Shown here piece by piece: positions 3,983-19,643 of a DNA stretch of 20,000 nucleotides; the stretch's first letter is position 1, and the number at the start of each line of letters is the position of its first letter. Origin of the DNA: an uncultured virus (IMG/VR IMGVR_UViG_3300024319_000691) (Duplodnaviria > Heunggongvirae > Uroviricota > Caudoviricetes). A program made the translations under genes and the position numbers. The DNA lies in IMG/VR virus record IMGVR_UViG_3300024319_000691. One strand, 5' to 3'. The notes under the pieces are model-generated. The model did not search any database and was not told where the DNA came from. It worked only from the letters and a program-made list of their open reading frames with translations.

Positions 3983-3992
3983 CAAACCATAT

Positions 3993-4568: not shown

Positions 4569-4593
4569 TAATTAAAAACCAAAAATATAACGT

Positions 4594-5501: not shown

Positions 5502-5628
5502 TCAAATTGACGAATGGGACGAAGAATTTTACGAAGATCGTCCTAGGAAGGGTAAATTGCCTAAAATGAAAGACGTTGAAAAATCGCTAGCAAGCAAAAA
5601 AAGAAAAGATATTGAAAATAAACAGTAA
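5488..5628 (+). CDS. small hypothetical protein (46 aa, MNWRNQIDEWDEEFYED...ENKQ)
   Basis: Not in the ORF track; translated by hand. It fills the gap, and its stop lies in repeat copy 2. Confidence 0.5.
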   Translation: MNWRNQIDEWDEEFYEDRPRKGKLPKMKDVEKSLASKKRKDIENKQ

Positions 5629-5673
5629 AAAGTTTTTTTATCTCAGAAATTTTGCTTATATTAGATAAGTAAT
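5613..5673 (+). promoter_or_regulatory. 61-bp conserved repeat copy 2, putative early promoter
   Basis: Near-identical to 4508-4568; ATG at 5688. Confidence 0.75.
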
Positions 5674-5687
5674 TAATTAAACAAGTA

Positions 5688-6245
5688 ATGAATCATCAAG
5701 AAACATCAATAGAAAAATTAGAATCAGCTCCTCAAAGTACAACTGAGAAAGCAATCGATACTCTATTTTCTGTACTATGTTCTTCTTCTAAAAAAAGCAA
5801 GAAGATAGTTTACGTGGATATGGATGGCGTCTTAGTAGATTTACATGCAAAACTCAGAGAATATCCTGAAGACGTTGTAAAATCTCTAGGAAACGATATT
5901 GATAAATTACCTGCTCTTTTCCTCGATCCTCCTCCAATGGAAGGTGCGATTGAAGCCTTTAACATTCTTTGTTCTTTATTCGATGTGTATATTCTATCAA
6001 CTGCACCTTGGGATAATCCTGAAGCTTTAATGCACAAAAGACTATGGGTTGAAAAGCATCTAGGAAAAAATGCATATAAAAGATTAATTCTTTCTCACAA
6101 CAAACATTTAAATGTTGGAGACTTTTTAATCGATGATAGAACTGCAAACGGAGCTGGTCAATTTACAGGAGAACATATTCATTTTGGAACAGAAAAATGG
6201 CCAGATTGGAAGGCTACTTTAGACTATCTTATACCTCACGCTTAA
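5688..6245 (+). CDS. 5'(3')-deoxyribonucleotidase (NT5C, HAD family)
   Basis: YVDMDGVLVD, ILSTAPW, KRLWVEKHLG, HNKHLNVGDFLIDD. Confidence 0.9.
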   Translation: MNHQETSIEKLESAPQSTTEKAIDTLFSVLCSSSKKSKKIVYVDMDGVLVDLHAKLREYPEDVVKSLGNDIDKLPALFLDPPPMEGAIEAFNILCSLFDVYILSTAPWDNPEALMHKRLWVEKHLGKNAYKRLILSHNKHLNVGDFLIDDRTANGAGQFTGEHIHFGTEKWPDWKATLDYLIPHA

Positions 6246-6606
6246 ATATAAGCTTAATCCAGTTATATCTTTTTCTGGATTCTAAGTATTTATAATTCTT
6301 TTCATTGGCATACGCTTCTCTTTCAAATGAGATGTTACGGTATGCTCCGGTTCCATAGATGAACAATTTTATAAACCATTCAGTAACATATAGAATATAG
6401 AAAGGAATCACTAAAAGTTCTTCCTGCTGCTTTATATGTATAGATTCATGATTAATAATCCTCTTCGCTCTTCCTCTCCACCATTTACCAGAATCATACT
6501 TTTCTCTTAGAACGATAAAGGGCCAAAGGGTAATTCCTCCAATTGACATAAACCAGCTTACTGCGTTTAAAAATCTGTCACTATATTTAATAATCGGTGT
6601 TTTCAT
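6229..6606 (-). CDS. conserved hypothetical protein with HExxH motif (possible zinc metalloprotease-like)
   Basis: GITLWPFIV...INHESIHIKQQ...AYRNISFEREAY. The start is moved to the ATG at 6606 (MKTPII), 4 nt after a GATATATA box. Confidence 0.7.
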   Translation of the reverse strand: MKTPIIKYSDRFLNAVSWFMSIGGITLWPFIVLREKYDSGKWWRGRAKRIINHESIHIKQQEELLVIPFYILYVTEWFIKLFIYGTGAYRNISFEREAYANEKNYKYLESRKRYNWIKLIFKREV

Positions 6607-6610
6607 ATAG

Positions 6611-6627
6611 TATATATCAGATATATA
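6611..6627. promoter_or_regulatory. palindromic back-to-back GATATATA boxes, putative bidirectional late promoter
   Basis: TATATATC-A-GATATATA is a perfect inverted repeat located between divergent genes. Confidence 0.55.
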
Positions 6628-6697
6628 ACCTAAGCCCACGTCAGAACGCTGACATTTAACTTCTTGGGCAGAAATCTATTAAACACTTTTTTTACAA

Positions 6698-7975
6698 ATG
6701 CTGAAATACTCAATGATAGCCTTTCTGGGGCTTTTCCTAGTTACTAGCGCCTATGCGCAAACCTGTGATTTAACACTCATAAGTCAAACACCACCTGCCA
6801 CAACAGAAGATGACCATTCTTTTGTAATTGAATTTGTTAATGCAGAAAATTGTGGATGTAATGAATTTACTCAATACGATGGAAATACTTGCGATGGCAA
6901 TGGGTCTAGTTCCGTAAATAATAATGAAAATGTATCTCATCTTGTTTTTGGTATTCATTATGTAAATGAAATCACTGGAGAAGACTTAGGAGAAAACACA
7001 GATTGTACTTCTACAACATTTCATCCAGGTTGGTCATATACTAATGTTACAAATTGGGGTGGTTGGGAAACTGGCGATGTTGTTACTATTAATATAAATC
7101 CACCATTTGCTTGGGAATGTATTTTAGCCACACCTCTTGAGGGATATTGTTGGGAAGTAGTAATATGGCAGATTAATCTTTCTCAAACTGCGGGTTATGA
7201 TGATTTTCCAGATAACGGATGGACTGTTGGTAATAGTTTTAATCAAACGCAAACATATCCTGATATTAATATAGATGATAATAGAATAGCTGTTTGTTAT
7301 GATCCTTGTGTACCTGACACTATAATCGAATACATTACTGATACGATTTATATAGAAACTATTGATACTCTTTATGTAACTGATACTATTATTGAATATG
7401 TAGACAATTTTATTACTGATACTCTTTATGTAGAAACCATTGACACAGTATATGTTGATGTTGAAGTTTTCGTTGAGGTTTTTATCACCGATACTATTAC
7501 TGAAATTGAGTACATTACAGAATATGTTACTGACACTCTTTTTATTACAACTGTCGATACAGTTGAAGTTATTGTATATGAATTCTTAACAGATACGGTT
7601 TATGAGTATATTTCTATTGATTGTGAAACTGGATTAGAATGTATTGATGATCCTGGATTAACTTGCCCAGATTGGACTTCAGTTTATCTTCCAAATACAT
7701 TTACACCAAATAATGATGGTTTAAATGATACATGGCAAATGGTTTATGATTTAGAATGTTGGGTCGATGTAGAATTTAAAATATTTAATAGATGGGGTGA
7801 CATGATCTATTCAGGTATGGGTGATTATTACGATTCATATCCTTATTGGGATGGAAGTGTAAATGGTGGTAATCACTATGCATCTGATGGCGTTTACACA
7901 TATACGTTCTACGCAAGAAAATTAAACTCAACCGAAATCTTTCAAAGACACGGACATATAACAATATTTAGATAA
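6698..7975 (+). CDS. secreted protein with gliding-motility-associated C-terminal (T9SS type B / CHU_C) domain
   Basis: Signal peptide ending AYA-Q; C-terminal LPNTFTPNNDGLNDTW, FKIFNRWG, YWDG, DGVYTY and GHITIFR. Confidence 0.88.
   Translation: MLKYSMIAFLGLFLVTSAYAQTCDLTLISQTPPATTEDDHSFVIEFVNAENCGCNEFTQYDGNTCDGNGSSSVNNNENVSHLVFGIHYVNEITGEDLGENTDCTSTTFHPGWSYTNVTNWGGWETGDVVTININPPFAWECILATPLEGYCWEVVIWQINLSQTAGYDDFPDNGWTVGNSFNQTQTYPDINIDDNRIAVCYDPCVPDTIIEYITDTIYIETIDTLYVTDTIIEYVDNFITDTLYVETIDTVYVDVEVFVEVFITDTITEIEYITEYVTDTLFITTVDTVEVIVYEFLTDTVYEYISIDCETGLECIDDPGLTCPDWTSVYLPNTFTPNNDGLNDTWQMVYDLECWVDVEFKIFNRWGDMIYSGMGDYYDSYPYWDGSVNGGNHYASDGVYTYTFYARKLNSTEIFQRHGHITIFR
7315..7620 (+). repeat. intragenic imperfect DT(I/L/V)(Y/I) peptide repeats
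   Basis: About 11 DT-hydrophobic units (DTIIEYITDTIYIETIDTLYVTDT...) within the T9SS-domain protein. Confidence 0.8.
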
Positions 7976-7976
7976 C

Positions 7977-8342
7977 ATGAAATCATTACTTATTTCCTTA
8001 TTATTTCTTTTACCATTTTACACAGTAGCACAATGCAATCAACATGTTTTTTCCTCAGTCGGAGCTGAGAAATGGACTAACTTCCAATATCAAGACTGTG
8101 ATGGATGGAATCATTACTTTGGTCTTCCCGCTGGAGGATATACTATAATCTTTTGTGCAGATATTGGCACCGCTTTTGTTTTAAATGGGGATGGATTTGT
8201 ATTTCCTTTGGCGAATGAACACCCCAATTACGCTTCCTGTATTCAACCAGAAACTGAATGTGAAGGTGATTTTGATGGAGATGGAATAGTAGGAGCAGAG
8301 GATCTTCTTACCTTTTTATCAAACTACGGTATGTGTGAATAA
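7977..8342 (+). CDS. small secreted protein with C-terminal dockerin/EF-hand-like motif
   Basis: Signal peptide; CEGDFDGDGIVGAEDLLTFLSNYG. Confidence 0.7.
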   Translation: MKSLLISLLFLLPFYTVAQCNQHVFSSVGAEKWTNFQYQDCDGWNHYFGLPAGGYTIIFCADIGTAFVLNGDGFVFPLANEHPNYASCIQPETECEGDFDGDGIVGAEDLLTFLSNYGMCE

Positions 8343-8355
8343 ATTTCATTTTTTT

Positions 8356-8416
8356 TGAAAATAAACAGCTAAAAGTTTTTTTATCTCAGAATTTTTGCTT
8401 ATATTAGTAGAGTAAT
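8356..8416 (+). promoter_or_regulatory. 61-bp conserved repeat copy 3, putative early promoter
   Basis: Gap-free match to the other copies; ATG at 8438. Confidence 0.75.
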
Positions 8417-8437
8417 AATTAATAAAAGAAACAAACC

Positions 8438-8725
8438 ATGTACACAGAACTTTCAAACAGAAACAAAGAATTACTTTTAAACGGAGCAAAAACAATAGGA
8501 TCCTTTACAGAAGGATATTACTATATTGAAGAAAGCCTATATAGCGATGAAGCTAATGAGCTTTATTCTTTTTGTGAATGGATCGACAATATTATTGGAG
8601 GTGCAGGCCCTGCAAACATTGAAACTCTATGGTTAGGATTTAAATATCCTGAAGTAGATGCATTTTCTGAATCTTGTGTCTATATAAAAAAGCAGATGGA
8701 CAGAATTAAAGCATACTCTATATAA
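8438..8725 (+). CDS. hypothetical protein
   Basis: 95-aa ORF directly after the repeat. Confidence 0.7.
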   Translation: MYTELSNRNKELLLNGAKTIGSFTEGYYYIEESLYSDEANELYSFCEWIDNIIGGAGPANIETLWLGFKYPEVDAFSESCVYIKKQMDRIKAYSI

Positions 8726-9084
8726 TGAAAACATATAAAATCCAAAGACAACCTCCATTCCGAGATTTTGCGATAGTTAAAACCTTAAGTGGAACTTATG
8801 TGTGCCCTGGATGGCATCCCGTTGAACCTGGAACTACACGAGAGCAGATAATCTTAGTAGAACCTGAAGACGCTCCAGTTATTAACAAACCTGTTAAAAA
8901 GTTAGTCACAAATCAAGTGAAACAAACTAAAACCTTTAAGGTATTATCTAGTAACGGTAAGTCATATTACAATGTTCAATTTAATGGTAAAGATTGGAGT
9001 TGTGATTGTCCCGCAAGTAATTTCTTTCGAGGTCCTTGTAAACACATTAAGGCAAAGAAAGAAGAATTAATAATTTCTAAATAA
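8725..9084 (+). CDS. SWIM zinc-finger protein
   Basis: YNV...WSCDCPASNFFRGPCKHI (CxC-xn-CxH). Confidence 0.82.
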   Translation: MKTYKIQRQPPFRDFAIVKTLSGTYVCPGWHPVEPGTTREQIILVEPEDAPVINKPVKKLVTNQVKQTKTFKVLSSNGKSYYNVQFNGKDWSCDCPASNFFRGPCKHIKAKKEELIISK

Positions 9085-9089
9085 TTTAT

Positions 9090-9269
9090 ATGAAAAAAGT
9101 TTTAAGTATTTTAAAAAGCATTGTAAGAGGATTGTCAAACCAATATTTCAGATTAATGGGATTTTTATGGATTTTTGCATCTTTTGCCTATATTGGAGAC
9201 CCTGAATTCTGGACAGTTTTAGGGTTTGGGACTGTATTTACAGGTATTCAAAGTATTATTGAAAAATAG
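9090..9269 (+). CDS. small membrane protein (59 aa)
   Basis: Hand-translated MKKVLSILKS...LMGFLWIFASFAYIG...WTVLGFGTVFTGIQSIIEK, with two hydrophobic segments. Confidence 0.6.
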   Translation: MKKVLSILKSIVRGLSNQYFRLMGFLWIFASFAYIGDPEFWTVLGFGTVFTGIQSIIEK

Positions 9270-9312
9270 TAAGATAATAATCAATAAATGGTAATTATCC
9301 AAGAGTAAAACA

Positions 9313-9320
9313 GATAAATA
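9313..9320 (+). promoter_or_regulatory. GATAAATA late-promoter-like box
   Basis: Lies upstream of the structural-like ORF at 9357 and resembles the T4 late box TATAAATA. Confidence 0.4.
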
Positions 9321-9356
9321 CTCTATAACAATTTTAAAAAAATCATAATTTTTAAT

Positions 9357-9905
9357 ATGGCATTACAAATAGGTGGGCAAATTAGCCTTTCAAATATTAC
9401 CGCAGAAATGGGACAAATTAATTCAAACGTTAGTTTGGGTGGTTTATCAACTCATTCAACTCTAAATGATCAGAGTCCAAGTAAACCGAATGAATCACAG
9501 CCACATGCTATGTCTGAGTTCTTTGCTTATGACCATTCCTACTCAAGTCTTAAAAATCTTATGGGAAGTTCAGAAGTTTCCACACGTGTTAAATGGTTTG
9601 ATGTATGTTTAGAAGATATGAAATTCTTCTACTTCCATAATGGAACCGGTAAATTACCGTTAGTTGGAAATTATATTTACACAAATCAATCCGGCTCGTT
9701 GACCGGGACTGCTCACATTAAAATACAAGGTGTTGAAGATTTCGATAAAGCAGAAATTGTTATAGCAACAGTTTCAGGTGGAAGAGTTACATCGATTAAT
9801 TCATGTGAAGGTATTGGAGAAGGACCGAACGATCCAGGTTTGAATCCAGGACCAAGTGAACCAAGCGAACCAGGCTCAGGCGACGAAGATCCATTCAGAA
9901 GATAG
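9357..9905 (+). CDS. putative virion-associated (tail-fibre/adhesin-type) protein
   Basis: N-terminus MALQIGGQISLSNITAEMG...VSLGGLS...PHAMSEF resembles the N-termini of small phage tail-fibre-associated proteins; it ends in a Pro/Gly/Glu-rich tail. Confidence 0.5.
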   Translation: MALQIGGQISLSNITAEMGQINSNVSLGGLSTHSTLNDQSPSKPNESQPHAMSEFFAYDHSYSSLKNLMGSSEVSTRVKWFDVCLEDMKFFYFHNGTGKLPLVGNYIYTNQSGSLTGTAHIKIQGVEDFDKAEIVIATVSGGRVTSINSCEGIGEGPNDPGLNPGPSEPSEPGSGDEDPFRR

Positions 9906-9938
9906 GACAAATAATATAGCTATTATTTAACATTAAAG

Positions 9939-9967
9939 AAAGTGAGATTTATTCTCACTTTTTTTTT
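9939..9967 (+). terminator. intrinsic terminator
   Basis: AAAGTGAGA-tttat-TCTCACTTT followed by a T-run. Confidence 0.8.
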
Positions 9968-9977
9968 GCTAAACAGT

Positions 9978-10004
9978 GAAACAAACACACCCTCCCTGAT
10001 ATAA
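9978..10004 (+). promoter_or_regulatory. putative ECF-type promoter GAAAC-N16-ATATAA heading the tRNA cluster
   Basis: GAAAC at 9978-9982 and ATATAA at 9999-10004, just after the terminator. Confidence 0.6.
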
Positions 10005-10014
10005 ATACAGTAAC

Positions 10015-10116
10015 ATGAACAAATTGAAAATCAAATTGAAAATGTGGATTATAGAAAAAACTATTCCAATTTGGTTTAGAGGTTTAAAGAAGCCTCGTTT
10101 GTGGAACGTTCTTTGA
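10015..10116 (+). CDS. small basic peptide (33 aa)
   Basis: Hand-translated MNKLKIKLKMWIIEKTIPIWFRGLKKPRLWNVL, 10 nt after the promoter motif. Confidence 0.4.
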   Translation: MNKLKIKLKMWIIEKTIPIWFRGLKKPRLWNVL

Positions 10117-10139
10117 ATTATAGGTTGTAAGTACTAAAT

Positions 10140-10225
10140 GCTCGAGTGGTGGAATTGGTAGACACGATGGACTTAAAATCCATTGAGCAGTAATGTTCGT
10201 GCGGGTTCAAGTCCCGCCTCGAGTA
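10140..10225 (+). tRNA. tRNA-Leu (UAA)
   Basis: Acceptor GCTCGAG/CTCGAGT, anticodon arm ATGGA-CTTAAAA-TCCAT, long variable arm, T-loop GTTCAAG; no encoded CCA. Confidence 0.95.
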
Positions 10226-10231
10226 CAACAT

Positions 10232-10345
10232 AGAAAAGCAAGAGATAAAGGTAAACTCCATATACACTATGGTCCGGCCGAAACAGCGTATCAAATTCTA
10301 ACAAGGAGACTGACGAGTCTCGCGCTTAAGGGTAGCTTCTTTTCT
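10232..10345 (+). ncRNA. candidate structured RNA in the tRNA cluster spacer
   Basis: Closing stem AGAAAAG/CTTTTCT with internal helices CCATA/TATGG, AGCG/CGCT and GAGAC/GTCTC; GC-richer than its flanks. Confidence 0.4.
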
Positions 10346-10379
10346 TTATAATTCACAAATCAAATTAAACTTAACGAAT

Positions 10380-10453
10380 GGACTAGTAGCTCAGCTGGAT
10401 AGAGCATCGCCCTTCTAAGGCGACGGTCGTAGGTTCGAATCCTACCTGGTTCA
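10380..10453 (+). tRNA. tRNA-Arg (UCU)
   Basis: Anticodon arm TCGCC-CTTCTAA-GGCGA with canonical D and T arms. Confidence 0.95.
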
Positions 10454-10457
10454 CAAT

Positions 10458-10530
10458 GATCTCTTAGCTCAGTTGGTAGAGCATCACACTTTTAATGTGA
10501 GGGTCCAGGGTTCGAGCCCCTGAGGGATCA
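10458..10530 (+). tRNA. tRNA-Lys (UUU)
   Basis: Anticodon arm TCACA-CTTTTAA-TGTGA; acceptor GATCTCT/AGGGATC. Confidence 0.95.
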
Positions 10531-10539
10531 CGAATATAT

Positions 10540-10613
10540 ACTCTTGTAGCTCAATCGGTTAGAGCAGGATCCTTATACGGTCAAGGTTACGGGTTCAAGT
10601 CCCGTCGAGAGTA
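10540..10613 (+). tRNA. tRNA-Ile (UAU)
   Basis: Acceptor ACTCTTG/CGAGAGT with discriminator A; anticodon loop CTTATAC (anticodon TAT); T arm ACGGG-TTCAAGT-CCCGT. Confidence 0.88.
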
Positions 10614-10622
10614 CCCTTTAAT

Positions 10623-10865
10623 ATGAAAGAATTTAATAAAGAAGAAATTAACAGAATAATAGAAATGGCATGGGAAGACAGAACTCCATTTAGCGCCATA
10701 GAATTTCAATTTGGTATTAAAGAAAATGATGTTAGAAAAATAATGAGATCTAACATGAAAGAATCTTCATTTAAGATGTGGAGAAAAAGAGTTAAGGGTA
10801 GAAAAACCAAACACAACTTCTCTCCTTCTGATTTTAGATTTAAATCAAGCAACCAAAAAAATTAA
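10623..10865 (+). CDS. TIGR03643/DUF2805-family protein
   Basis: RIIEMAWEDRTPF...IEFQFG...SSFKMWRKRV.GRKTKH. Confidence 0.85.
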   Translation: MKEFNKEEINRIIEMAWEDRTPFSAIEFQFGIKENDVRKIMRSNMKESSFKMWRKRVKGRKTKHNFSPSDFRFKSSNQKN

Positions 10866-10873
10866 ATCTAAGA

Positions 10874-11206
10874 ATGTACAAGAAGGAAATAATAAAATTA
10901 TGGAATCATTTTAAAAGGTGGTTTATTTCTAAAGTCTTAAAAAAGAAGATAACATTTACAAGTGACGATTGGACAGGAGAAGTAGAAGTGTACTATTATA
11001 AAGGTGAAACTAGAATGACATGGTCTAGGGGAAATAACGCAATGCCAGATGGTGTTAGAAATAGAGCGTTTATCTTTTGCCATTCAGATACTGCACGTCA
11101 TATACCTGAAGGATATTGCAAGTTCTTATACACTATAATAATACCAGAAGGATGGACAAACTCTGGAGAACAGTTTACGGTAACTAGGTATATTAAACAT
11201 TCTTAA
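10874..11206 (+). CDS. hypothetical protein
   Basis: 110-aa ORF in the operon; no motif recognised. Confidence 0.6.
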   Translation: MYKKEIIKLWNHFKRWFISKVLKKKITFTSDDWTGEVEVYYYKGETRMTWSRGNNAMPDGVRNRAFIFCHSDTARHIPEGYCKFLYTIIIPEGWTNSGEQFTVTRYIKHS

Positions 11207-11220
11207 AATTTGGAGTATAA
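11194..11220 (+). promoter_or_regulatory. putative ECF-type promoter TAAAC-N16-GTATAA
   Basis: One mismatch in the -35 element with the exact spacer; ATG at 11226. Confidence 0.5.
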
Positions 11221-11225
11221 ATACC

Positions 11226-11450
11226 ATGACAGGAACAGAATACATGGATTTATCCATAGAAAATACATTTAACGTACTAACAGGAGCTCAAACCTTCGAA
11301 GAGATATTACTCAACGCAACAGAACCGCCTATATTCTTTATAGAACCTGGTGAAGGCCTAGATAACGATCAAATAGACGTAATGATAGAACATTATGAAT
11401 ATTTTGAACAGTATGAGAAGTGTGGTCTTCTACTTAAAATGAAATCTTAA
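11226..11450 (+). CDS. hypothetical acidic protein
   Basis: 74 aa; the C-terminal EHYEYFEQYEKCGLL helix is UVR-like. Confidence 0.6.
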   Translation: MTGTEYMDLSIENTFNVLTGAQTFEEILLNATEPPIFFIEPGEGLDNDQIDVMIEHYEYFEQYEKCGLLLKMKS

Positions 11451-11558
11451 TACTATATCATTCTACTCTTTTACGTAAAATGACTCTTATGGAGCTACTT
11501 ATGAATATATAAGTTATATGAATGCACAACGCGTTCATTCTTAAAAATAGTGAAAGTC

Positions 11559-11837
11559 ATGAAAAAACTTATAAGTTGGATTAGCCAAATCTTACGAGAC
11601 GAAAGAGGCAATCCATCATCAAAAAGAGTTGTTGGCGTACTAGCTGGTCTTAGTTTATGTGTTACATTAATAATGAACCAATTTACTGATATAGCAATAG
11701 CGCCCTCAGACACACTAGTTAATGCAGTTGCTGCCCTTGCTTTCGGAGCCTTGGGTTTATCTTCAGCTGATAAGATTTGGGGTAAACTCCAAGGAAAAGA
11801 AGAAGCTAAAGAAGAAGCTAAAGAGGAAGAACTTTAA
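11559..11837 (+). CDS. two-TM membrane protein, holin-like
   Basis: DERGNPSSKRVVG followed by two hydrophobic helices and a charged KEEA-repeat tail. The ATG at 11559 is preferred to the GTG at 11550. Confidence 0.55.
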   Translation: MKKLISWISQILRDERGNPSSKRVVGVLAGLSLCVTLIMNQFTDIAIAPSDTLVNAVAALAFGALGLSSADKIWGKLQGKEEAKEEAKEEEL

Positions 11838-11870
11838 GAAAGAAGCGTAAGCGATTAGCATAATCTAAAT

Positions 11871-11898
11871 AAAGGGACAGAGAAATCTGTCCCTTTTT
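11871..11898 (+). terminator. intrinsic terminator
   Basis: AAAGGGACAGA-GAAA-TCTGTCCCTTT followed by TT. Confidence 0.8.
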
Positions 11899-11933
11899 AC
11901 ATTATATTCATTAAGATATAATTATTCGTATAT

Positions 11934-11960
11934 GAAACATTTATATTTAGATGAATATAA
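11934..11960 (+). promoter_or_regulatory. putative ECF-type promoter GAAAC-N16-ATATAA
   Basis: GAAAC at 11934-11938 and ATATAA at 11955-11960, after the terminator. Confidence 0.6.
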
Positions 11961-11980
11961 TTAGTAACAAAACTAATAAG

Positions 11981-12772
11981 ATGATAGCACACGTATTCGA
12001 CGTAGATGGGACACTAACCCCAAGCAGGCTTTCAATGGATCCTAAATTTAAAAAATACTTTTTAAAATGGATGAAAGGTAAAACTGTAATATTCGTAACA
12101 GGATCAGATAAAGATAAAACAATCGAACAAATAGGATTAGATGTATGGAATGAAGCAACTGCATGCATGCAGTCTTGTGGAAATCATATATTTGTTAAAG
12201 GAGAAGAGGTTTCTAGAAATTCTTGGAAAGCCGATGAAGGATTGATTTCTTTACTTGAACAATTTTTGGTAATTTCTAAATATAGAAAAAGAACATCAAA
12301 CCACATTGAACACAGAATAGGACTTTGTAATTTTTCAGTAATTGGAAGAGATTGTTCTCAAAGAGAAAGAGAAGACTATGCAGAATGGGATGATTTCAAT
12401 AAGGAACGATTAGATATGGCACAACTCATTAATGAAAACTTCCCTGAATTAGAGGCTTCGGTCGGTGGTCAAATCTCAATAGACATACACCCTAAAGGAG
12501 CAAACAAGAGTCAAGCTAAGAAATGGATCTTAGAAAATATAGGAGAAGATACGGTTATTAGATTCTATGGAGATAAAACTGAAAAAGGAGGAAATGACTA
12601 TGACCTTGCTAATGTTTTAAAATTACCTCATGAAGTATTTCAGGTTAAAGATTGGGAACATACTTATAGAATATTAAAGGACAGTAAGAAAAGAGATAAA
12701 TGGCTCGTAGACCAATATAATAGAAATAGATCTTCAGCAGATCAGATTAATAACATTGATGACATAAAATAA
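11981..12772 (+). CDS. eukaryote-type phosphomannomutase (HAD-IIB, PMM family)
   Basis: FDVDGTLT, VTGSD, IEHRIGLCNFSVIGR, GGQISIDI and FYGDKTEKGGNDY. The start is moved to 11981 because 11951 lies within the promoter motif. Confidence 0.88.
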   Translation: MIAHVFDVDGTLTPSRLSMDPKFKKYFLKWMKGKTVIFVTGSDKDKTIEQIGLDVWNEATACMQSCGNHIFVKGEEVSRNSWKADEGLISLLEQFLVISKYRKRTSNHIEHRIGLCNFSVIGRDCSQREREDYAEWDDFNKERLDMAQLINENFPELEASVGGQISIDIHPKGANKSQAKKWILENIGEDTVIRFYGDKTEKGGNDYDLANVLKLPHEVFQVKDWEHTYRILKDSKKRDKWLVDQYNRNRSSADQINNIDDIK

Positions 12773-12891
12773 TGGTTATAAAAATAATATTAGGTGCATT
12801 TGTAATATCATGGGTTGGAATAATCTATTCAATGATAACCGCCCCTCTAGTTGATGAAAACGGCAATATCATTAAAGAAGAGGATAAATAG
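12772..12891 (+). CDS. small single-TM protein (39 aa)
   Basis: Hand-translated MVIKIILGAFVISWVGIIYSMITAPLVDENGNIIKEEDK; TAATG coupling to the upstream gene. Confidence 0.55.
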   Translation: MVIKIILGAFVISWVGIIYSMITAPLVDENGNIIKEEDK

Positions 12892-12894
12892 AAT

Positions 12895-13488
12895 ATGAAA
12901 GCACATACCTTTAAAACACCTGAAAATCATGCAACTGATTTCTATTATTTTGATAATGGATTCGATTCAGCAGAATTAGAGAAAATATCTAAAATGGTAG
13001 GAGAACTCCCGTTTTATAATGCAACTACAGCTGCTGGTGAAATAGACTCAAGAAAATCTAAATTAAAATGGATTCCACAAACTAAAGAGTGGGATTGGCT
13101 TTATGAAAAATTAATGATGTTTGCAGAAACAGCAAATAATGAAATGTGGAATTTTGATTTAATATCTGCACCTGAAAATATACAATACACAGAATATCAT
13201 GGAACTAATATGGGTGAATATGGATGGCATCAAGATATTGGACCAAATGAATTATCTGTTAGAAAAGTTTCTATAACAGTTCAATTGTCAGACGATACTG
13301 AATATGAAGGAGGAGAACTATTATTTTGGATGGGTGGAAACAGCCTTGAAAATAATAATTTAATAGCACCGAGAGGAAAAGGAACCGTTGTCCTATTTCC
13401 AAGCTATATGGTCCATGCAGTTAAGCCAGTAACTAAAGGAATAAGAAAGTCATTCGTCCTGTGGTTAGGAGGAGGACATTATAAATAA
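12895..13488 (+). CDS. 2OG-Fe(II) oxygenase (PKHD/prolyl-hydroxylase-like)
   Basis: WHQD (HxD), RKVSITVQLS, YEGGEL, FPSYMVHAVKPVTKGIRKSFVLW. Confidence 0.92.
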   Translation: MKAHTFKTPENHATDFYYFDNGFDSAELEKISKMVGELPFYNATTAAGEIDSRKSKLKWIPQTKEWDWLYEKLMMFAETANNEMWNFDLISAPENIQYTEYHGTNMGEYGWHQDIGPNELSVRKVSITVQLSDDTEYEGGELLFWMGGNSLENNNLIAPRGKGTVVLFPSYMVHAVKPVTKGIRKSFVLWLGGGHYK

Positions 13489-13492
13489 ACAA

Positions 13493-13597
13493 ATGACAGA
13501 TCCTGAAGACGAATACGACGACATTGAAAATACCGAATATGATGGTATATCAATAAACAAACCCACTGAATATAACGATGACGATTATGACTACTGA
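13493..13597 (+). CDS. very acidic small protein (34 aa)
   Basis: Hand-translated MTDPEDEYDDIENTEYDGISINKPTEYNDDDYDY; it fills the intergenic gap exactly. Confidence 0.45.
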   Translation: MTDPEDEYDDIENTEYDGISINKPTEYNDDDYDY

Positions 13598-13598
13598 T

Positions 13599-13997
13599 AT
13601 GGAATTAATATCAACACATCCAGTAAAAAAATCAGACCTGGGTTTTCACGGAAATCTTTTTGGAGGTAAATTATTAGCATGGGTAGATGCAGCTGGAGCT
13701 TCTTATGCTTCACAAGTATGTGATACTCCTCGAATGGTAACCGTTCTTATAGATGAATGTGTTTTTAAAAAACCAGCAAAGGAAGGACATCTACTAAAAA
13801 TATATGGAGATGTAAAGAGCATAGGAAGAACGTCAGTCACTCTTTCTATTGAAGCAAGATCACATAATGTATATGACGGAAGACAAGCTATTATTCTAGC
13901 AACCAATATTAAATTTGTTAGAATAGATGAACAAGGAGAAGCTATTCCAGTAGGTCAAAAAGTTAAAGATAAATTTAAAAAATCAGAACAAAATTAA
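13599..13997 (+). CDS. acyl-CoA thioesterase (HotDog fold, YciA-like)
   Basis: DLGFHGNLFGGKLLAWVDAAG, FKKP, GRTS, FVRIDEQG. Confidence 0.9.
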   Translation: MELISTHPVKKSDLGFHGNLFGGKLLAWVDAAGASYASQVCDTPRMVTVLIDECVFKKPAKEGHLLKIYGDVKSIGRTSVTLSIEARSHNVYDGRQAIILATNIKFVRIDEQGEAIPVGQKVKDKFKKSEQN

Positions 13998-14006
13998 AGA
14001 CACTCT

Positions 14007-14014
14007 GATATATA
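14007..14014 (+). promoter_or_regulatory. GATATATA late-promoter-like box
   Basis: Intergenic, upstream of the ATG at 14040. Confidence 0.45.
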
Positions 14015-14039
14015 CCCTAAACAAAATTATAACCAAAGA

Positions 14040-14528
14040 ATGAGAGCACTTATCGTAATTGCACAACCAAATATGAATAGTTTCGAACAGACTACAATGT
14101 TAAGAACTATTGCAAGAGTATTTGACGTATTAGAAATAAAACATGAAGTATTAGATCTTTATGTAAACGGAAAAGTAGGTCCTGAGGCTAAGCCAAAAAA
14201 CTTTAATTTAAGAGTTAAAAATGCAACACATGTGTATATCATCGCAAATTCTGCATGGTTACCTTTAGTTGATTTATTCTTAGAACCATTTGATTTTGAA
14301 GGAAAGCATATTGAAGCTATGATTTCTCATAACAGATCTAAAAGTATTTGGAGATGGTTAAGTGCAGAATCTAGATTAGCACAATCTGCGTTTGGTTCTT
14401 CTATTAAAAAATTATTTAAGATTAAGGCAAGTCACCTATGGGATGTAGATGAACTTACTAGACTTGAGAAGACAAATTATATTAAACAGATTAGAGAAGA
14501 AATCTTAAATGATTTCGATGCAAAGTAA
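14040..14528 (+). CDS. divergent flavodoxin-like fold protein
   Basis: MRALIVIAQPNMNSF and EVLDLY resemble the Flavodoxin_2 N-terminus; the FMN-binding P-x-W-W motif is eroded. Confidence 0.55.
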   Translation: MRALIVIAQPNMNSFEQTTMLRTIARVFDVLEIKHEVLDLYVNGKVGPEAKPKNFNLRVKNATHVYIIANSAWLPLVDLFLEPFDFEGKHIEAMISHNRSKSIWRWLSAESRLAQSAFGSSIKKLFKIKASHLWDVDELTRLEKTNYIKQIREEILNDFDAK

Positions 14529-14548
14529 TCTATTTTATAGTATATCAG

Positions 14549-14576
14549 AAGGGAATAAAGCAATTTATTCCTTTTT
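14549..14576 (+). terminator. intrinsic terminator
   Basis: AAGGGAATAAA-GCAA-TTTATTCCTTT followed by TT, directly before repeat copy 4. Confidence 0.7.
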
Positions 14577-14598
14577 GGGGACTAAATTGAAAATAAAT

Positions 14599-14659
14599 TG
14601 AAAATAAACAGCTAAAAGTTTTTTTATCTCAGATTTTTTGCTTATATTAGTATAGTAAT
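14599..14659 (+). promoter_or_regulatory. 61-bp conserved repeat copy 4, putative early promoter
   Basis: Gap-free match to the other copies; ATG at 14677; its 5' end is part of an 11-bp tandem duplication. Confidence 0.75.
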
Positions 14660-14676
14660 AATCAAACAAACAAAAT

Positions 14677-15000
14677 ATGTCAAACATCCTAACATTCGTA
14701 CTTAGAAACTCTATGGGAGATTCAACAAACAATGGTCTATCTTCAAGAGAAGACTCTATTATTCTGCACTATGGCCCTGATGCCGATTTAGCAGATTTAA
14801 CCTTAATTCCAGATGATGAATTGGTTTTAGTAGAAAGACAGCTATTCGGAAAGGAAGCATGGTATGCAGTTCCTGCCGGATTATACAAGAACAATAAACA
14901 CACAATGTTTGGCGGCAATTTTATTCACACTTCAGACTCAAGATTTCCATCTTCTGCACCAATTGCAGTTCATGACAGAGTAGAATCTAATAACTATTAA
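14677..15000 (+). CDS. hypothetical phage protein
   Basis: 107 aa; GDSTNNGLSS...MFGGNFIHTSDSRF...IAVHDRVE. Confidence 0.7.
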   Translation: MSNILTFVLRNSMGDSTNNGLSSREDSIILHYGPDADLADLTLIPDDELVLVERQLFGKEAWYAVPAGLYKNNKHTMFGGNFIHTSDSRFPSSAPIAVHDRVESNNY

Positions 15001-15001
15001 T

Positions 15002-16294
15002 ATGAAAGAATTAAAACTTACACAAGAATTTGTAAACGAATCTAATTCAACAAATTCAAACACGGACAAGATTAACGTAATTAAGAAGTATTCTAATCAA
15101 CCAGATGTTCTTAAAGTGCTGCAGTATACATACGACACGTTTAAACAGTATTATGTTACTTCAAAAAACTGTAAGAAGAGAAGTGATCTAGTGCTTCCTT
15201 TCGGATCTTATACTGATATCTTCTCTTTGTTAGATGCATTGAGTTCTCGACAAATAACTGGTCATTCTGCGATTGAAGCGGTAAATACATTTGTAGAAGA
15301 GAATAAAGAATACTCTGATCTTATTTGGAATATCATTGACGGAAACCTAAAAACTAGGTCAACTATTTCTATGATTAATAAAGTTGTACCGGGTTTAATT
15401 CCAACCTTTGACGTAGCACTCGCTCAAGCGTATGACGAAAAGACTAAAAAGAAAGTAGATTGGAATGACGGATGGTATGTTAGTCGTAAACTAGATGGTG
15501 TTAGATGTCTAGCAATTATTGATGATAAAGGAGATGTTAATTTCTATAGTAGAGCAGGAAAAGAATTTACAACACTAGATTCTTTGAAACCTTCTATCCA
15601 AAGATTAGGTCTTACGAATATGGTGTTTGATGGTGAAGTTTGTATGGTAGATGAAAATGGAAATGAAGATTTCCAAGGTATCATTAAGCAAATTAAAAGA
15701 AAAGATCATACTATTACAAATCCATTTTATCATATCTTTGATTTATTGACCATTAAAGAATTTAACGATAAAGAATCTATTACCTCTTTTAGTGAAAGAC
15801 AATCTAACCTTAGAGCGTATGTTCTAGATGGCGATCAATTTATTAGCCACCTTGTTCAAATGTTAGGAGATGATCTTGTAATGGAAAGAATGATGGAACT
15901 ATCGAAAGAAGGAGGATGGGAAGGACTAATGCTTCGTAAGAATACAACATACCAAGGAAAACGTTCTAGTGATGTTCTTAAGGTTAAGAAATTCTATGAT
16001 GATGAATATTATGTAGTTGATTTAGAGAATGCTCTTAATAGAGTTATCGTTGACGGGAAAGAAGTTGAAGAAATGATGCTTAAGAATGTTGTAGTTGAAC
16101 ATAAAGGAAGTAGAGTTCAGGTTGGTTCTGGTTTTTCACATGAACAAAAAAGATTTTATTTTAAAAATCCTGATAAAATTCTAGGAAAGCAAATCACTGT
16201 TCAATATTTTGAAGAAACTACAAATCAACATGGAGAACATTCACTTAGGTTCCCTGTGATCAAAGCGGTTTATGAAACAGAGCGTACCTTTTAA
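15002..16294 (+). CDS. ATP-dependent DNA ligase
   Basis: Motif I SRKLDGVR, FDGE, IFDL, EGLMLR, LKVK and the OB-fold GSGF...LRFP. Confidence 0.95.
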   Translation: MKELKLTQEFVNESNSTNSNTDKINVIKKYSNQPDVLKVLQYTYDTFKQYYVTSKNCKKRSDLVLPFGSYTDIFSLLDALSSRQITGHSAIEAVNTFVEENKEYSDLIWNIIDGNLKTRSTISMINKVVPGLIPTFDVALAQAYDEKTKKKVDWNDGWYVSRKLDGVRCLAIIDDKGDVNFYSRAGKEFTTLDSLKPSIQRLGLTNMVFDGEVCMVDENGNEDFQGIIKQIKRKDHTITNPFYHIFDLLTIKEFNDKESITSFSERQSNLRAYVLDGDQFISHLVQMLGDDLVMERMMELSKEGGWEGLMLRKNTTYQGKRSSDVLKVKKFYDDEYYVVDLENALNRVIVDGKEVEEMMLKNVVVEHKGSRVQVGSGFSHEQKRFYFKNPDKILGKQITVQYFEETTNQHGEHSLRFPVIKAVYETERTF

Positions 16295-16300
16295 ATATAA
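16274..16300 (+). promoter_or_regulatory. putative ECF-type promoter GAAAC-N16-ATATAA
   Basis: GAAAC at 16274-16278, ATATAA at 16295-16300, ATG at 16318. Confidence 0.6.
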
Positions 16301-16317
16301 TTAATTAAATCCCATAT

Positions 16318-17010
16318 ATGACAATAGTTTTAGGAGACGGTTTATTAGCATCAGAACTTATAGGACAAACAGGATGGTCTTATATTTCAAGAAAACAGGA
16401 CTTTTTAAATTTTAATAGTCTTAGTAGTGTTATTAATTTAATTCCAAAGGACTGCACTACGATAGTCAATTGCATTGCATACACAGACACCTATTCTGAT
16501 GATAAATCTAAAATGCTTCAAACTAATTATCATTCAGTTGCAAACTTGGCTGAATTCTGTAATCATAGAGGAATAAAACTAATTCACTATTCTACAGATT
16601 ACGTATATGCTGGTTCAAATCCAAATGCAAGCGAAGAAGATATTCCTATTCCTGATAAAACATGGTATGCATATTCTAAATTATTAGCAGACGAGCATAT
16701 CATTAGACATTCAGATGATTATCTAATCGTAAGAGGGAGTCACAGAATTAATCCATTTCCTTATGCAACTGCATGGAACGATCAGATAGGAAATTTCGAT
16801 GATGTAGATGTATTAGTAAATCAGTGGATCAAGCTAATTAAAGCAGAGCAGAAAGGTGTATGGAATATAGGAACACCTTCGAAGAGCGTATATGAATATG
16901 CATCTAGAGAAAAAGATGTTGATTCAGCACCTGCCCCTGATCATTTCCCAAAGGATACGACAATGGATCTTACGAAACTTAATGTATTTTTAAAAAATTA
17001 TGAAATATAA
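16318..17010 (+). CDS. RmlD-like dTDP-4-dehydrorhamnose reductase (SDR)
   Basis: VLGDGLLA, NCIAYTD, LIHYSTDYVY, YAYSKLLA. Confidence 0.82.
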   Translation: MTIVLGDGLLASELIGQTGWSYISRKQDFLNFNSLSSVINLIPKDCTTIVNCIAYTDTYSDDKSKMLQTNYHSVANLAEFCNHRGIKLIHYSTDYVYAGSNPNASEEDIPIPDKTWYAYSKLLADEHIIRHSDDYLIVRGSHRINPFPYATAWNDQIGNFDDVDVLVNQWIKLIKAEQKGVWNIGTPSKSVYEYASREKDVDSAPAPDHFPKDTTMDLTKLNVFLKNYEI

Positions 17011-17666: not shown

Positions 17667-18123
17667 GAGAACCGGAATTACATGCTCTACATTTGATCTG
17701 TTTCATGCAGGTCATGTAAAGATGCTAGAGGAAGCTAAGAAAGAGTGCGATTATCTAATAGTTGCTTTACAAACAGATCCCTCAATTGATCGACCTGATT
17801 CCAAGAACCCTCCTATCCAGTCTTTAGTCGAAAGATACATTCAAGTTAAGGCTTGTAGATATGTAGATGAAATAGTCCCTTACCAAACTGAAAAGGATCT
17901 CGAAGATATTTTCGCAAGTTTCGATATTGATTGTAGAGTAATAGGTATCGAATATAAAGATAAGAATTTTACAGGAAAAGATACATGTGTAAAGAGAGGA
18001 ATCGAGATCATATATAATAAAAGAGATCATGGTTTTTCAAGCACAGAACTCAGAAATAGAGTATGGGAAGTAGAGCATGTAAAAAGTTTAGAATTAATTG
18101 AAAAAAAATTCAATAAAAGTTGA
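17656..18123 (+). CDS. cytidylyltransferase (TagD / glycerol-3-phosphate CT-like)
   Basis: TFDLFHAGHV (HxGH), ACRYVDE, RDHGFSSTELR. Confidence 0.9.
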   Translation: MQNKRTGITCSTFDLFHAGHVKMLEEAKKECDYLIVALQTDPSIDRPDSKNPPIQSLVERYIQVKACRYVDEIVPYQTEKDLEDIFASFDIDCRVIGIEYKDKNFTGKDTCVKRGIEIIYNKRDHGFSSTELRNRVWEVEHVKSLELIEKKFNKS

Positions 18124-18148
18124 AACTAAATTAAAGATATTGGTATAA
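18122..18148 (+). promoter_or_regulatory. putative ECF-type promoter GAAAC-N16-GTATAA
   Basis: GAAAC at 18122-18126 and GTATAA at 18143-18148, upstream of Hc1 and the ncRNA candidate. Confidence 0.65.
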
Positions 18149-18185
18149 TTACCGAATAACAATTAAATATTAAAAATTCAAAGAA

Positions 18186-18368
18186 ATGACAAATTTATTA
18201 TCACAAATCCAAGAAACCCTGGATTCAATTCAGGACGACGCTACTAAGTTTAACGAAAAAGGAAACAAAGCAGCAGGAACAAGAGTAAGAAAAGGAATGC
18301 AAGCTATCAAAGCGTTAGCGCAAGATGTAAGAGTTGCAGTTTCTGAAGCAAATAAAGCAAAAGTCTAA
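18186..18368 (+). CDS. histone H1-like protein (Hc1 family, Bacteroidota type)
   Basis: DATKFNEKGNKAAGTRVRKGMQAIKALAQDVR. Confidence 0.85.
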   Translation: MTNLLSQIQETLDSIQDDATKFNEKGNKAAGTRVRKGMQAIKALAQDVRVAVSEANKAKV

Positions 18369-18856
18369 GGTTATATACTAACCAAGGAAAACGTTCTTTA
18401 ACATATTGTAGAAGGCACATTACCAGATTGATCATCTAGAATGTGAGTGTATTGCCGAAAAAATCCTAATGGAAAGAGGGATTAAGGCACACTAAGACAC
18501 CGAACAAGTTTCGGCTCGATTGCAGAAGTGAGTAATTGAGACTCGACAGAGTAGATAGTGGTAGATCGGAAAAGATAAATCTAAACTGATTTTTCCGAGA
18601 GCATTGCAAGCAGCCGAAAGGAACCCTTGCCGTAAACTGACTGAATAATCCTATCTTATAGGGGATAAAGTACAACTAAAGCCATTGTGGCGCTATAACG
18701 AGATTAACCATCTTGAGTAGAACTTGAAATAATAGTAAAGTTAGTTGGTATGCAGTATATCATACAATAAGACGATCTTCTAAGGCTAGTATACCTTAGT
18801 ACACGATCCTTCTATGTTATAACCCAGAACCTAGTGAAAGCTAGGTTCTTAGGGGG
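18369..18856 (+). ncRNA. large structured non-coding RNA candidate
   Basis: No + strand ORF of 60 aa or more. Long-range closing helix 18399-18415/18808-18819 with more than ten nested helices and GAAA tetraloops. Confidence 0.7.
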
Positions 18857-18883
18857 TAAGTAATGATAAAAACAGTTTAAATC

Positions 18884-19027
18884 ATGAACAGTGAACAGTC
18901 AAACAACGGAAACACTCAGATAAACCACGAAAGAGCAAGTCTGAATAGTAGAGTTTCTAGGTTTAGAATTCTTGGTCAAACCAAGAAAGTACAATGGGAC
19001 GGTAGAAGAAGAAACCGAACTATTTAA
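18884..19027 (+). CDS. small basic protein (47 aa)
   Basis: Hand-translated MNSEQSNNGNTQINHERASLNSRVSRFRILGQTKKVQWDGRRRNRTI with an A-rich leader. Confidence 0.5.
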   Translation: MNSEQSNNGNTQINHERASLNSRVSRFRILGQTKKVQWDGRRRNRTI

Positions 19028-19040
19028 ATATTATTAAAAG

Positions 19041-19643
19041 ATGGAACTAATCTTAAACGTTCTTACGGTTTTTTTAACCCTGTTTGCGGTTATCGATATG
19101 CCAGGTAATGTACCACTAATCATCAAGCTTAGAAAGGAGAATGGTGAAATAGAATCGGCGAAGGCTACGTTAATCGCAATATGCATTATGATATCTTTCC
19201 TATTTGTAGGTAAAACCCTCTTCATGTTATTAGGTATTGAAACATTCCACTTTGCATTAGCAGGTGCAATGCTTCTTCTTTATTTTGGTGTAAAGATGGT
19301 TTTAGGAATCGAATCCAGTGCCGAGACAGAACCTATGCCAGCAACTATATTTCCAATAGCATTTCCAATTATAGCAGGACCAGGAACCTTATCAACTATC
19401 ATGTCCTTAACACAAGATCTTTCAGATTTGGTAATTATTATAGGAATAGTTTTAAACGCAATAGTAATTTACGTATTTTTAAAATCTGCAGACTGGATTC
19501 AACGTAAAGTTGGTGTAATAGGAATTACAATAATGGAAAGAGTTTTTGGTATTATTCTTATCGCAATAGGTATGAAAATCTTAATCACTTCCCTAGTTTT
19601 AAGCATTAATGACGTTAATGCCTCCTTAGTCACCAATATCTAG
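19041..19643 (+). CDS. MarC-family integral membrane protein
   Basis: LFAVIDMPGNVP, IFPIAFPIIAGPGTLSTI, MERVFGIILIAIG; about six TM segments. Confidence 0.9.
   Translation: MELILNVLTVFLTLFAVIDMPGNVPLIIKLRKENGEIESAKATLIAICIMISFLFVGKTLFMLLGIETFHFALAGAMLLLYFGVKMVLGIESSAETEPMPATIFPIAFPIIAGPGTLSTIMSLTQDLSDLVIIIGIVLNAIVIYVFLKSADWIQRKVGVIGITIMERVFGIILIAIGMKILITSLVLSINDVNASLVTNI

Follow-up and report, generated by a model that had tools for sequence, protein, structure and literature searches.

What kind of gene occupies a stretch of phage DNA in which no protein appears to be encoded? The question is raised by an uncultured virus of the Caudoviricetes (IMG/VR record IMGVR_UViG_3300024319_000691), where such a stretch lies directly behind the gene of an Hc1-like histone protein. 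The 20,000 nucleotides analysed here, called the window, are bases 82507-102506 of a virus contig of 102,534 bases (CheckV completeness 34%) and are AT-rich. Positions 18409-18814 of the window, on the + strand, are a conserved non-coding gene for a structured RNA of about 405 nt that occurs in uncultured marine phages. As judged from comparison of sequences and covariance models, this RNA is a fused, diverged tandem of two modules of the manA type, interlocked by the helices P1, P3 and P9 and by two pseudoknots.

Base composition, reading frames and folding energy all fit a non-coding locus. The stretch has a GC content of 0.37-0.39, against 0.28-0.36 alongside, as an earlier reading made from the letters of the window (the sequence-only reading) had remarked. 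Between 18369 and 18883 there is no open reading frame (ORF) of at least 25 aa on the + strand, and the - strand contains two, of 42 aa and 69 aa. The folding energy predicted for the + strand, -133.2 kcal/mol, corresponds to a z-score of -4.19, with none of 100 shuffles folding as well; the z-score of the - strand is -2.38.

Homologues were collected by three routes. The Hc1 protein led to 14 viral loci, four of which contain the RNA. Three pattern scans of viral contigs gained one new contig (L099), a 14-base pattern returning mostly chance matches; IMG/VR contigs carrying the RNA number five. Metagenome contigs were scanned for a pattern drawn from the conserved core in module 2; this gave 119 of an estimated 170 loci, and the RNA was found in 92 of these 119 (E 1.8e-47 or lower). 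The motif of module 2 is conserved by construction among these homologues, since they were fetched with it. For the alignment, 84 full-length copies (83 from the metagenome scan and L155) were taken together with the window, L005 and L010 and reduced to 50 representatives with less than 97% identity (mean 77%, lowest 61%). A BLAST search of the RNA against 50,697 phage records gave no match, and a genuine manA query likewise matched nothing there. In four related large phage records (G001-G004) BLAST detected no copy, these records being fragments in which absence is not thereby shown.

Covariation in this alignment carries the case for a folded RNA. RNAalifold predicted 97 pairs, 58 of which change on both sides in a compensatory way, and 98.9% of the cells are paired. 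When the partners were slid by one to three columns, these values fell to 35.3-43.9% of cells paired and to 7-15 pairs changing on both sides, and none of 500 shuffles reached any of five covariation measures; all pair counts are alignment cells and not independent events. The 69-aa ORF of the - strand was rejected as a gene, as the matching stretch is free of stops and in frame in a single representative, the window itself. The variable columns show no three-base periodicity either (95/89/80 by phase). Together, the absence of a protein gene, the folding energy and the covariation confirm the large, ornate + strand RNA that the sequence-only reading had put forward.

The covarying fold refines the one drawn earlier (Table 1). 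Twelve of its sixteen helices (P1, P2, P4, P6, P7, P8, P11, P12, P13, P14, P15 and P17) are supported by covariation. The helix AGTGT/ACACT gives way to P3 and P5, and GTATG/CATAC found no support. The proposed pairing of TCGGAAAA with TTTTCCGA is mostly replaced by P9 and by the pseudoknot PK2 from the loop of P4. Finally, the outer pair TAACA/TGTTA and the hairpin at 18826-49 survive as features confined to the subclade of the window (window, L004, L005 and L257).

Table 1. Features of the window, in order of the fold, followed by features elsewhere in the window.
Feature	Position	Strand	Evidence or remark
Sigma-70-like promoter site TTGAAA-18-TATAAT ahead of Hc1, candidate start of an Hc1-RNA transcript	18120..18149	+	11/12 consensus positions; consensus match only
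Hc1-like protein gene, 60 aa	18186..18368	+	Pfam PF07432, E 8.6e-23
Conserved 5' box GTTCTTTAACATATT, directly 5' of P1	18393..18407	+	nearly invariant in alignment
P1, closing helix, TAGAAGG/CCTTCTA	18409..18415 with 18808-18814	+	4/6 pairs change on both sides, e.g. AU 25 / GC 24
P2, hairpin CACATT/AATGTG, self-complementary tip UGAUCA at 18429-18434	18416..18445	+	covariation
P3, long-range, GUGUA/UACAC	18447..18451 with 18800-18804	+	99.2% of cells paired; last pair AU 37 / GC 10 / GU 3
Module 1 (manA-type), ends in GGUA	18446..18563	+	covariation, match of module 2 model
P4, hairpin GCC/GGC + AATCC/GGATT	18454-18488	+	within module 1
P5, CACU with AGUG, encloses P6, P7 and P8	18490-93 with 18557-60	+	covariation
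P6, hairpin CCGAA/TTCGG	18500-14	+	within module 1
P7, hairpin CTCGATTGC/GTAATTGAG	18515-40	+	within module 1
P8, hairpin ACTC/GAGT	18541-52	+	within module 1
P9, long-range, AGAUCG/CGAUCU	18563..18568 with 18773-18778	+	5/6 pairs change on both sides; L223 AAGUUA/UAACUU
P10 region, short local hairpin and 3' strand of PK2	18569..18602	+	
PK2, pseudoknot from P4 loop	18470-18477 with 18590-18597	+	top-ranked of all segment pairs (6.50 vs 5.14, matched vs permuted complementarity)
P11, hairpin GCAAG..CTTGC between modules, GAAA cap (GAGA in many relatives)	18606..18630	+	100% of cells paired; one pair CG 38 / UA 12
Module 2 (manA-type), starts UGACUGAAUAA, AUAAAGUAC between P12 and P13, ends GGUA	18632..18750	+	manA match, covariation, module 1 model
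P12, hairpin CCTAT/ATAGG	18640-71	+	within module 2
PK1, pseudoknot from P12 loop	18654-18659 with 18767-18772	+	second-ranked covarying complementarity (6.00 vs 5.05)
P13, CAACTAA/TTAGTTG, encloses P14, P15 and P16	18673-78 with 18742-47	+	covariation
P14, hairpin GCCA/TGGC	18681-91	+	within module 2
P15, hairpin CGAGAT/ATCTTG	18693-18720	+	within module 2
P16, hairpin	18722-41	+	within module 2
Conserved linker GGUAUGCAGUA..., 3' end is the 3' strand of PK1	18748..18772	+	
P17, hairpin CUAAGG/CCUUAG, loop contains GUAUAC	18780..18799	+	6/6 pairs change on both sides
Clade-specific 3' hairpin, 9 bp, loop UGAAAG	18826..18849	+	compensatory changes window vs L005; absent from L010 and L099
Sigma-70-family factor of the phage's own	4594-5193		
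Protein with CHU_C type IX secretion domain	6698-7975		
Four transfer RNA (tRNA) genes	10140-10616		

The two pseudoknots are the best-ranked long-range complementarities of the RNA. PK2 is formed by 16 different duplexes, among them GGAAAGA/UCUUUCU, UCGUGAGA/UUUCACGA and AGACAGA/UUUGUCU, and the variants of PK1 include CUUAUU/AAUAAG, UCCAAU/AUUGGA, UUCUAU/AUAGAA and UCUUGU/ACAAGA. A single-column covariation scan, dominated by clade structure, was used only as a lead to these two elements. The loops keep further regularities: the tip of P2 reads GAUC in 43 representatives and GGCC in three, both self-complementary, with another loop in the remaining four, and GUAUAC is present in the P17 loop in 38 of the 50. 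Long stretches, including GGUAUGCAGUA and GAGCAUUG, are invariant and unpaired. Kissing pairs between loops of module 1 and loops of module 2 (e.g., L6 with L14) showed no covariation by eye or in the complementarity ranking, and the 5' box has no covarying complementarity to the 3' tail or to any loop. In some clades the 5' strand of P10 and the loop of P4 can both pair with one 3' segment, as AGAAAGAU and GGAAAGA do with AUCUUUCU; the two pairings would there be mutually exclusive, a possible conformational switch. In other clades the sites of P10 and PK2 lie side by side.

In 2010 the manA motif of marine phages was put forward as a candidate riboswitch, and it has been filed as such since (Weinberg et al. 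2010, PMC2864571). At gathering cut-offs, Rfam reports only tRNAs in the window. When E-values are considered, a single match appears, to manA (RF01745) at 18616-18807 with 27.4 bits and E 6.6e-5, for a cut-off of 55.2 bits. It is the only manA match in the contig, and none was obtained in 14 control genomes. All 20 representatives tested score between 20.4 and 36.2 bits with the manA model. Among 20 loci that carry the search pattern and lack the RNA, nine hold manA above the cut-off (55.4-75.7 bits) and four more below it. R1, a covariance model of module 2 (the 3' core), matches all 13 of these manA loci with 18.3-39.2 bits and mostly keeps their three-hairpin junction. In 18100-19100 the Rfam models of GOLLD and ROOL remained without a match up to E 10, as they did at the gathering cut-off in the whole window. 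The likeness to these two phage RNAs suggested by the sequence-only reading stands in kind, for an RNA that is phage-encoded, set in tRNA islands and kin of a cage-forming RNA, and falls as to membership. A wholly new class, its other option, is not what was found, as the modules belong to a known family. Its failure to see signatures of transfer-messenger RNA (tmRNA), RNase P RNA or group I and II introns agrees with ARAGORN and Rfam, which matched none of these in the stretch.

The tandem nature of the RNA emerges from models that find each other. The best non-self match of R1 in the window is module 1 (18448-18563, 13.4 bits, E 0.39), and R2, the covariance model of module 1, matches 18632-18750 with 15.1 bits. 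Across 49 loci, R2 found module 2 at its exact coordinates every time (10.1-24.5 bits, 26 with E below 0.1), with three unrelated matches in that score range, and it also matches genuine manA RNAs. The modules are 118 nt (module 1) and 119 nt (module 2) long and share one plan: a junction strand, UGACNGAANAA or a diverged form of it, a hairpin with a pseudoknotted loop, an A-rich AUAAGGUAC strand, a helix closing three hairpins, and GGUA. The three-hairpin junction closed by a helix and followed by GGUA occurs twice, as P13 with P14-P16 and as P5 with P6-P8, each covarying, and in both modules a covarying pseudoknot starts from the loop of the first hairpin. The core junction signature (UGACUGAAUAA ... 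hairpin ... UAAGGU) occurs in module 2 of all 50 representatives, by construction of the search pattern. In module 1 it is full in the most divergent clade (L223, L165 and L156), which reads UGACCGAAUAAUCC...GGGGAUAAGGUAC, the complete manA signature, as in module 2, and it is diverged elsewhere. Full-length alignments of R1 and R2 to manA loci keep the topology of the three-hairpin junction. The closing helix and fourth hairpin of manA itself are both unpaired in the cmscan alignment, and P3 and P9 covary instead. The reciprocal matches of R1 and R2, the common plan of the modules and the manA signature in the L223 clade are the reasons for reading the RNA as a fused tandem.

Two adjacent matches to manA-type modules were also seen in each of L219 (538-840), L237 (297-598), L199 and L210 (568-839), which are apparently unfused tandems in marine sequence. 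Among the papers on manA in the library searched, none was found to describe a two-module manA RNA, or a link of manA to tRNA or tmRNA genes, in its title, abstract beginning or searched passages.

The genes downstream of the RNA vary, and tRNA genes are frequent neighbours. Where the upstream flank extends over at least 300 nt (35 loci), an Hc1 gene lies ahead of the RNA in 27, with protein identity down to 65%. In the other eight, which belong to two divergent clades, no Hc1 was present within 460-730 nt. Five related loci without the RNA (L006-L009 and L011, at about 3226-3334) have a tRNA gene in its place, 50-90 nt after an Hc1 that is 66-88% identical. Hc1 thus seems to head a stable-RNA operon, and because related phages without the RNA keep the order Hc1 then tRNA, the linkage of Hc1 and RNA may only mark the head of a tRNA operon. 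Genes for tRNA occur in 28 of 49 loci, never on the strand opposite to the RNA. Of 30 loci whose flanks reach at least 400 nt on each side, 23 contain them, some within 30 nt on either side, often tRNA-Ala(UGC) or tRNA-Gly, and in several loci the RNA sits flush between tRNA genes. In the window, the RNA is followed by an ORF of 47 aa and then by the gene of a MarC membrane protein. The Arg-rich product of this ORF had been named as a candidate partner of the RNA; as the ORF is kept in just two of 49 related loci, it is not a conserved partner.

The borders of the RNA also carry signals. In nearly all copies of the RNA the 5' box stands ahead of P1, one box to each copy that has it; related loci without the RNA never contain it, and the 102.5-kb contig has one exact copy. 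The box is a candidate promoter, processing signal or leader. A role as a general promoter was rejected on the strength of that single exact copy and of 5+5 sites with two mismatches, against 2+3 in a reversed control. A weaker copy, GTTCTTTGAATTATA, lies at 10108-10122 of the window, 17 nt ahead of a tRNA-Leu gene. At the other end, at least six U in 8 nt follow P1 in 34 of the 50 representatives, and most relatives have either a U-run or a tRNA gene after P1. In the window there is no U-run after P1, and no terminator-like site was scored.

Genuine manA RNAs keep similar company. In L216 (463-951), L199 (686-1211), L238, L250 and L210, a manA RNA of 55-61 bits follows, after about 10 nt and on the same strand, a complete tmRNA gene of the alpha (permuted) type, and manA-like RNAs stand among tRNA genes in L171 and L221. 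Such neighbours fit poorly with the filing of manA as an element of 5' untranslated regions.

Transcription together with Hc1 from an upstream promoter, as supposed in the sequence-only reading, is plausible from the promoter match and from contigs assembled from RNA libraries, which cover Hc1 and the RNA without a break from 18171 onward. Position 18171, downstream of the promoter match, is where contigs of two runs end, a weak hint of a transcript start. The stretch occurs in 20 public runs, six of which are RNA libraries; contigs of four of these libraries were compared, and they have neither joints nor gaps within the RNA. In three of the four, contig depth over Hc1 and the RNA was 665-2849, against 2-8 on neighbouring genes, a 100-1000-fold difference that hints at high expression of the RNA. 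Parts of the window left uncovered by such contigs were not counted as evidence. Contigs from RNA libraries of two runs diverge from the window at 19028 into tRNA-like sequence; a co-occurring strain has a tRNA in place of the MarC gene of the window.

We lean, with moderate confidence, towards a stand-alone phage RNA, a fused manA-type pair that would be highly transcribed with Hc1 and tRNAs and would self-assemble, and not towards a cis-regulator. Four observations argue for an RNA particle: variable genes downstream, a place among tRNA genes, abundance in RNA libraries and kinship with a self-assembling fold. Related manA RNAs form RNA-only assemblies of 8, 10 and 60 subunits through kissing loops and a GNRA contact, described as closed oligomers based on pentamers (cryo-electron microscopy preprint of July 2026, 10.64898/2026.07.01.735769), and GOLLD and ROOL, phage RNAs found near tRNA islands, assemble into RNA-only cages through kissing loops (Kretsch et al. 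2025, PMC12286853). In the parts drawn on here, the preprint is silent on the biology of manA, and its main text, by word search, contains neither 'tandem' nor 'tRNA'. The RNA of the window would share an abundant transcript with the Hc1 gene ahead of it and with the tRNA genes of the phage, and where tRNAs abut it, the tRNA-processing enzymes would set it free. It would exert no action on the gene downstream; the particle itself would act, most likely after assembly into a closed, RNA-only multimer through the tip of P2 and other loops, in the manner of manA, GOLLD and ROOL. By analogy, the RNA probably self-assembles as manA RNAs do, and the self-complementary tip of P2, kept in 46 of the 50 representatives, is an indirect sign of self-contact. 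A bolder proposal, which we hold only tentatively, sees in the RNA two protomers of the cage-forming manA fold, covalently joined by nature, which would build a closed RNA-only particle unlike the 10-mers and 60-mers of manA, made in bulk with tRNAs by phages of marine Flavobacteriaceae. A different particle geometry would be expected because P1, P3 and P9 weld the two modules together.

A tandem riboswitch would make different use of the same architecture, with two homologous aptamers sensing a metabolite and controlling read-through into the genes downstream, which are the 47-aa ORF and MarC in the window and tRNAs elsewhere. As a riboswitch candidate, manA was assigned to 5' untranslated regions of genes concerned with mannose, fructose and nucleotides (PMC2864571). 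Sugar-nucleotide genes abound in the window (those of an epimerase, a phosphomannomutase, an RmlD-like protein and a cytidylyltransferase), the pair of homologous modules within a single fold resembles tandem aptamers such as those of the glycine riboswitch, and the U-run right after P1 in 34 of the 50 representatives could belong to a terminator closed by P1. The downstream neighbour is variable, however, with the 47-aa ORF kept in 2 of 49 loci and tRNAs flanking 23 of 30; the window itself has neither a U-run nor a terminator-like site, and no alternative pairing of an expression platform was seen apart from the possible competition of P10 and PK2. Genuine manA RNAs also occur behind tmRNA genes and inside tRNA arrays. 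On balance we regard the riboswitch as improbable.

The association with Hc1 would instead suit a ribonucleoprotein, in which the RNA is a scaffold that binds the Hc1-like protein or captures a host protein and is not a self-assembling unit. Hc1 is directly upstream in 27 of 35 loci at protein identities down to 65%, contigs from RNA libraries join it to the RNA, and proteins could bind the long unpaired stretches that do not vary, GGUAUGCAGUA and GAGCAUUG among them. Yet in two divergent clades (8 of 35 loci) the RNA has no Hc1 within 460-730 nt, in related phages that lack the RNA a tRNA comes after Hc1, so that the linkage may be one of operon position only, and the Hc1 of the window consists of just the conserved domain of 57 residues; such a complex seems unlikely. 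Very improbable, in our view, is a catalytic RNA, or one that processes itself, with a part in the maturation of tRNA operons. Its flush placement between tRNA genes in several loci would suit one, and many conserved junction nucleotides together with two pseudoknots amount to a ribozyme-like complexity; up to E 10, on the other hand, the Rfam models of ribozymes, introns and RNase P all stay without a match, contigs from RNA libraries show no joints or gaps in the RNA, and the related manA RNAs are reported as structural assemblies (10.64898/2026.07.01.735769).

Several points weigh against the favoured reading of a self-assembling, manA-type particle. With the manA model all scores stay below the Rfam cut-off, the best being 36.2 against 55.2 bits. 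The manA loci used in the cross-tests were fetched with a pattern from the RNA of the window, which makes the shared motif partly one of construction. The match of R1 to module 1, with E 0.39 over the bases searched, draws its weight only from the coincidence of coordinates and from the reverse search. As to self-contact, the P2 tip changed from GAUC to GGCC only once, within a single clade, four of the 50 representatives have no palindrome, and the minimum-energy fold of the isolated P2 hairpin leaves all four tip bases unpaired in only 32 of the 50. In the ranking of segment pairs, no covarying loop-loop pairs were found beyond the two pseudoknots. The manA cages themselves are described in a preprint, for RNA refolded in vitro at high concentration (10.64898/2026.07.01.735769). 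The RNA-library data are contigs, with one depth per contig, no strand and possible carry-over of DNA, and in run X17 a single contig spans the RNA together with 2 kb of genes ahead of it. The hosts derived from genome bins, described below, may be binning artefacts.

The phages that carry the RNA probably infect marine Flavobacteriaceae. Among GTDB species genomes there were 13 pattern matches, three of which are RNAs of the window's family, all in bins of Flavobacteriaceae or Flavobacteriales; these bins and the protein with a CHU_C domain in the window are the basis of the proposal. The other ten, for which Rfam gave no family up to E 0.01, were discarded as chance matches. No place for the phage among cultured ones could be found, since its DNA ligase is at most 32% identical to any protein of isolate phages and has no close isolate. 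Besides the ligase, the window encodes several sugar-nucleotide enzymes and the MarC protein. An unusual set of auxiliary and sugar-nucleotide genes extends over 694-17010 and comprises an NAD epimerase/dehydratase, guanylate kinase, phosphomannomutase, RmlD-like protein, cytidylyltransferase, 2OG-Fe(II) oxygenase and thioesterase. Before the tRNA cluster, an ORF-free gap at 9906-10139 has a strong hairpin followed by a U-run (AAAGUGAGA...UCUCACUUUUUUUUU; fold z -2.75), and within the cluster a gap of 153 nt between tRNA-Leu and tRNA-Arg (10227-10379) has no Rfam match and an ordinary folding energy (z -1.19).

If the bolder proposal of a double protomer is right, manA-type RNAs as a class would not be cis-regulators and would constitute a third family of phage RNA compartments beside GOLLD and ROOL, linked to tRNA and tmRNA genes; their particles would perhaps enclose or shield tRNAs during infection. 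What is added here is the natural fusion of two manA modules, interlocked in a single fold of about 405 nt, the linkage to Hc1 and the flavobacterial setting. Both this RNA and genuine manA RNAs sit in clusters of tRNA or tmRNA genes and not ahead of protein genes, and the RNA of the window appears abundant in RNA libraries from seawater. The result shifts manA-type RNAs towards the kind of GOLLD and ROOL and offers a natural "dimer" construct for structural work, a gain tempered by a family relation that is known in kind.

Among known systems, the tandem glycine riboswitch likewise has two homologous structured modules in one transcript, packed against each other. The modules of the window RNA differ from it in being interleaved by Watson-Crick helices, with no ligand or expression platform known. 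With GOLLD and ROOL the RNA has in common that it is large, ornate, phage-encoded and located near or inside tRNA islands, a shared setting that is not evidence of membership, and that no protein partner is known. It differs from them in sequence and model, to which it shows no similarity, and in size, with 405 nt against roughly 580-800. The differences from manA lie mainly in architecture. The window RNA comprises two modules in about 405 nt, against one in about 190 nt, and adds P1, P2 and the conserved 5' box; P3 and P9, which tie the modules together, replace the closing helix and the fourth hairpin of manA. RNAs of the window's family score 20-36 bits, against a cut-off of 55.2 and 55.4-75.7 bits for genuine manA loci, and they come from probably flavobacterial phages, whereas manA comes from cyanophages or Photobacterium. 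The two nevertheless share the signature UGACNGAANAA ... GGGGAUAAGGUA and the helix closing three hairpins and then GGUA. A pseudoknot from the loop of the first hairpin may be a further common feature; the one in manA is marked 'pseudoknot?' (Weinberg et al. 2010, PMC2864571). The two RNAs also have in common a last hairpin with a GUAUAC loop and an origin in marine phages, and their models match in both directions.

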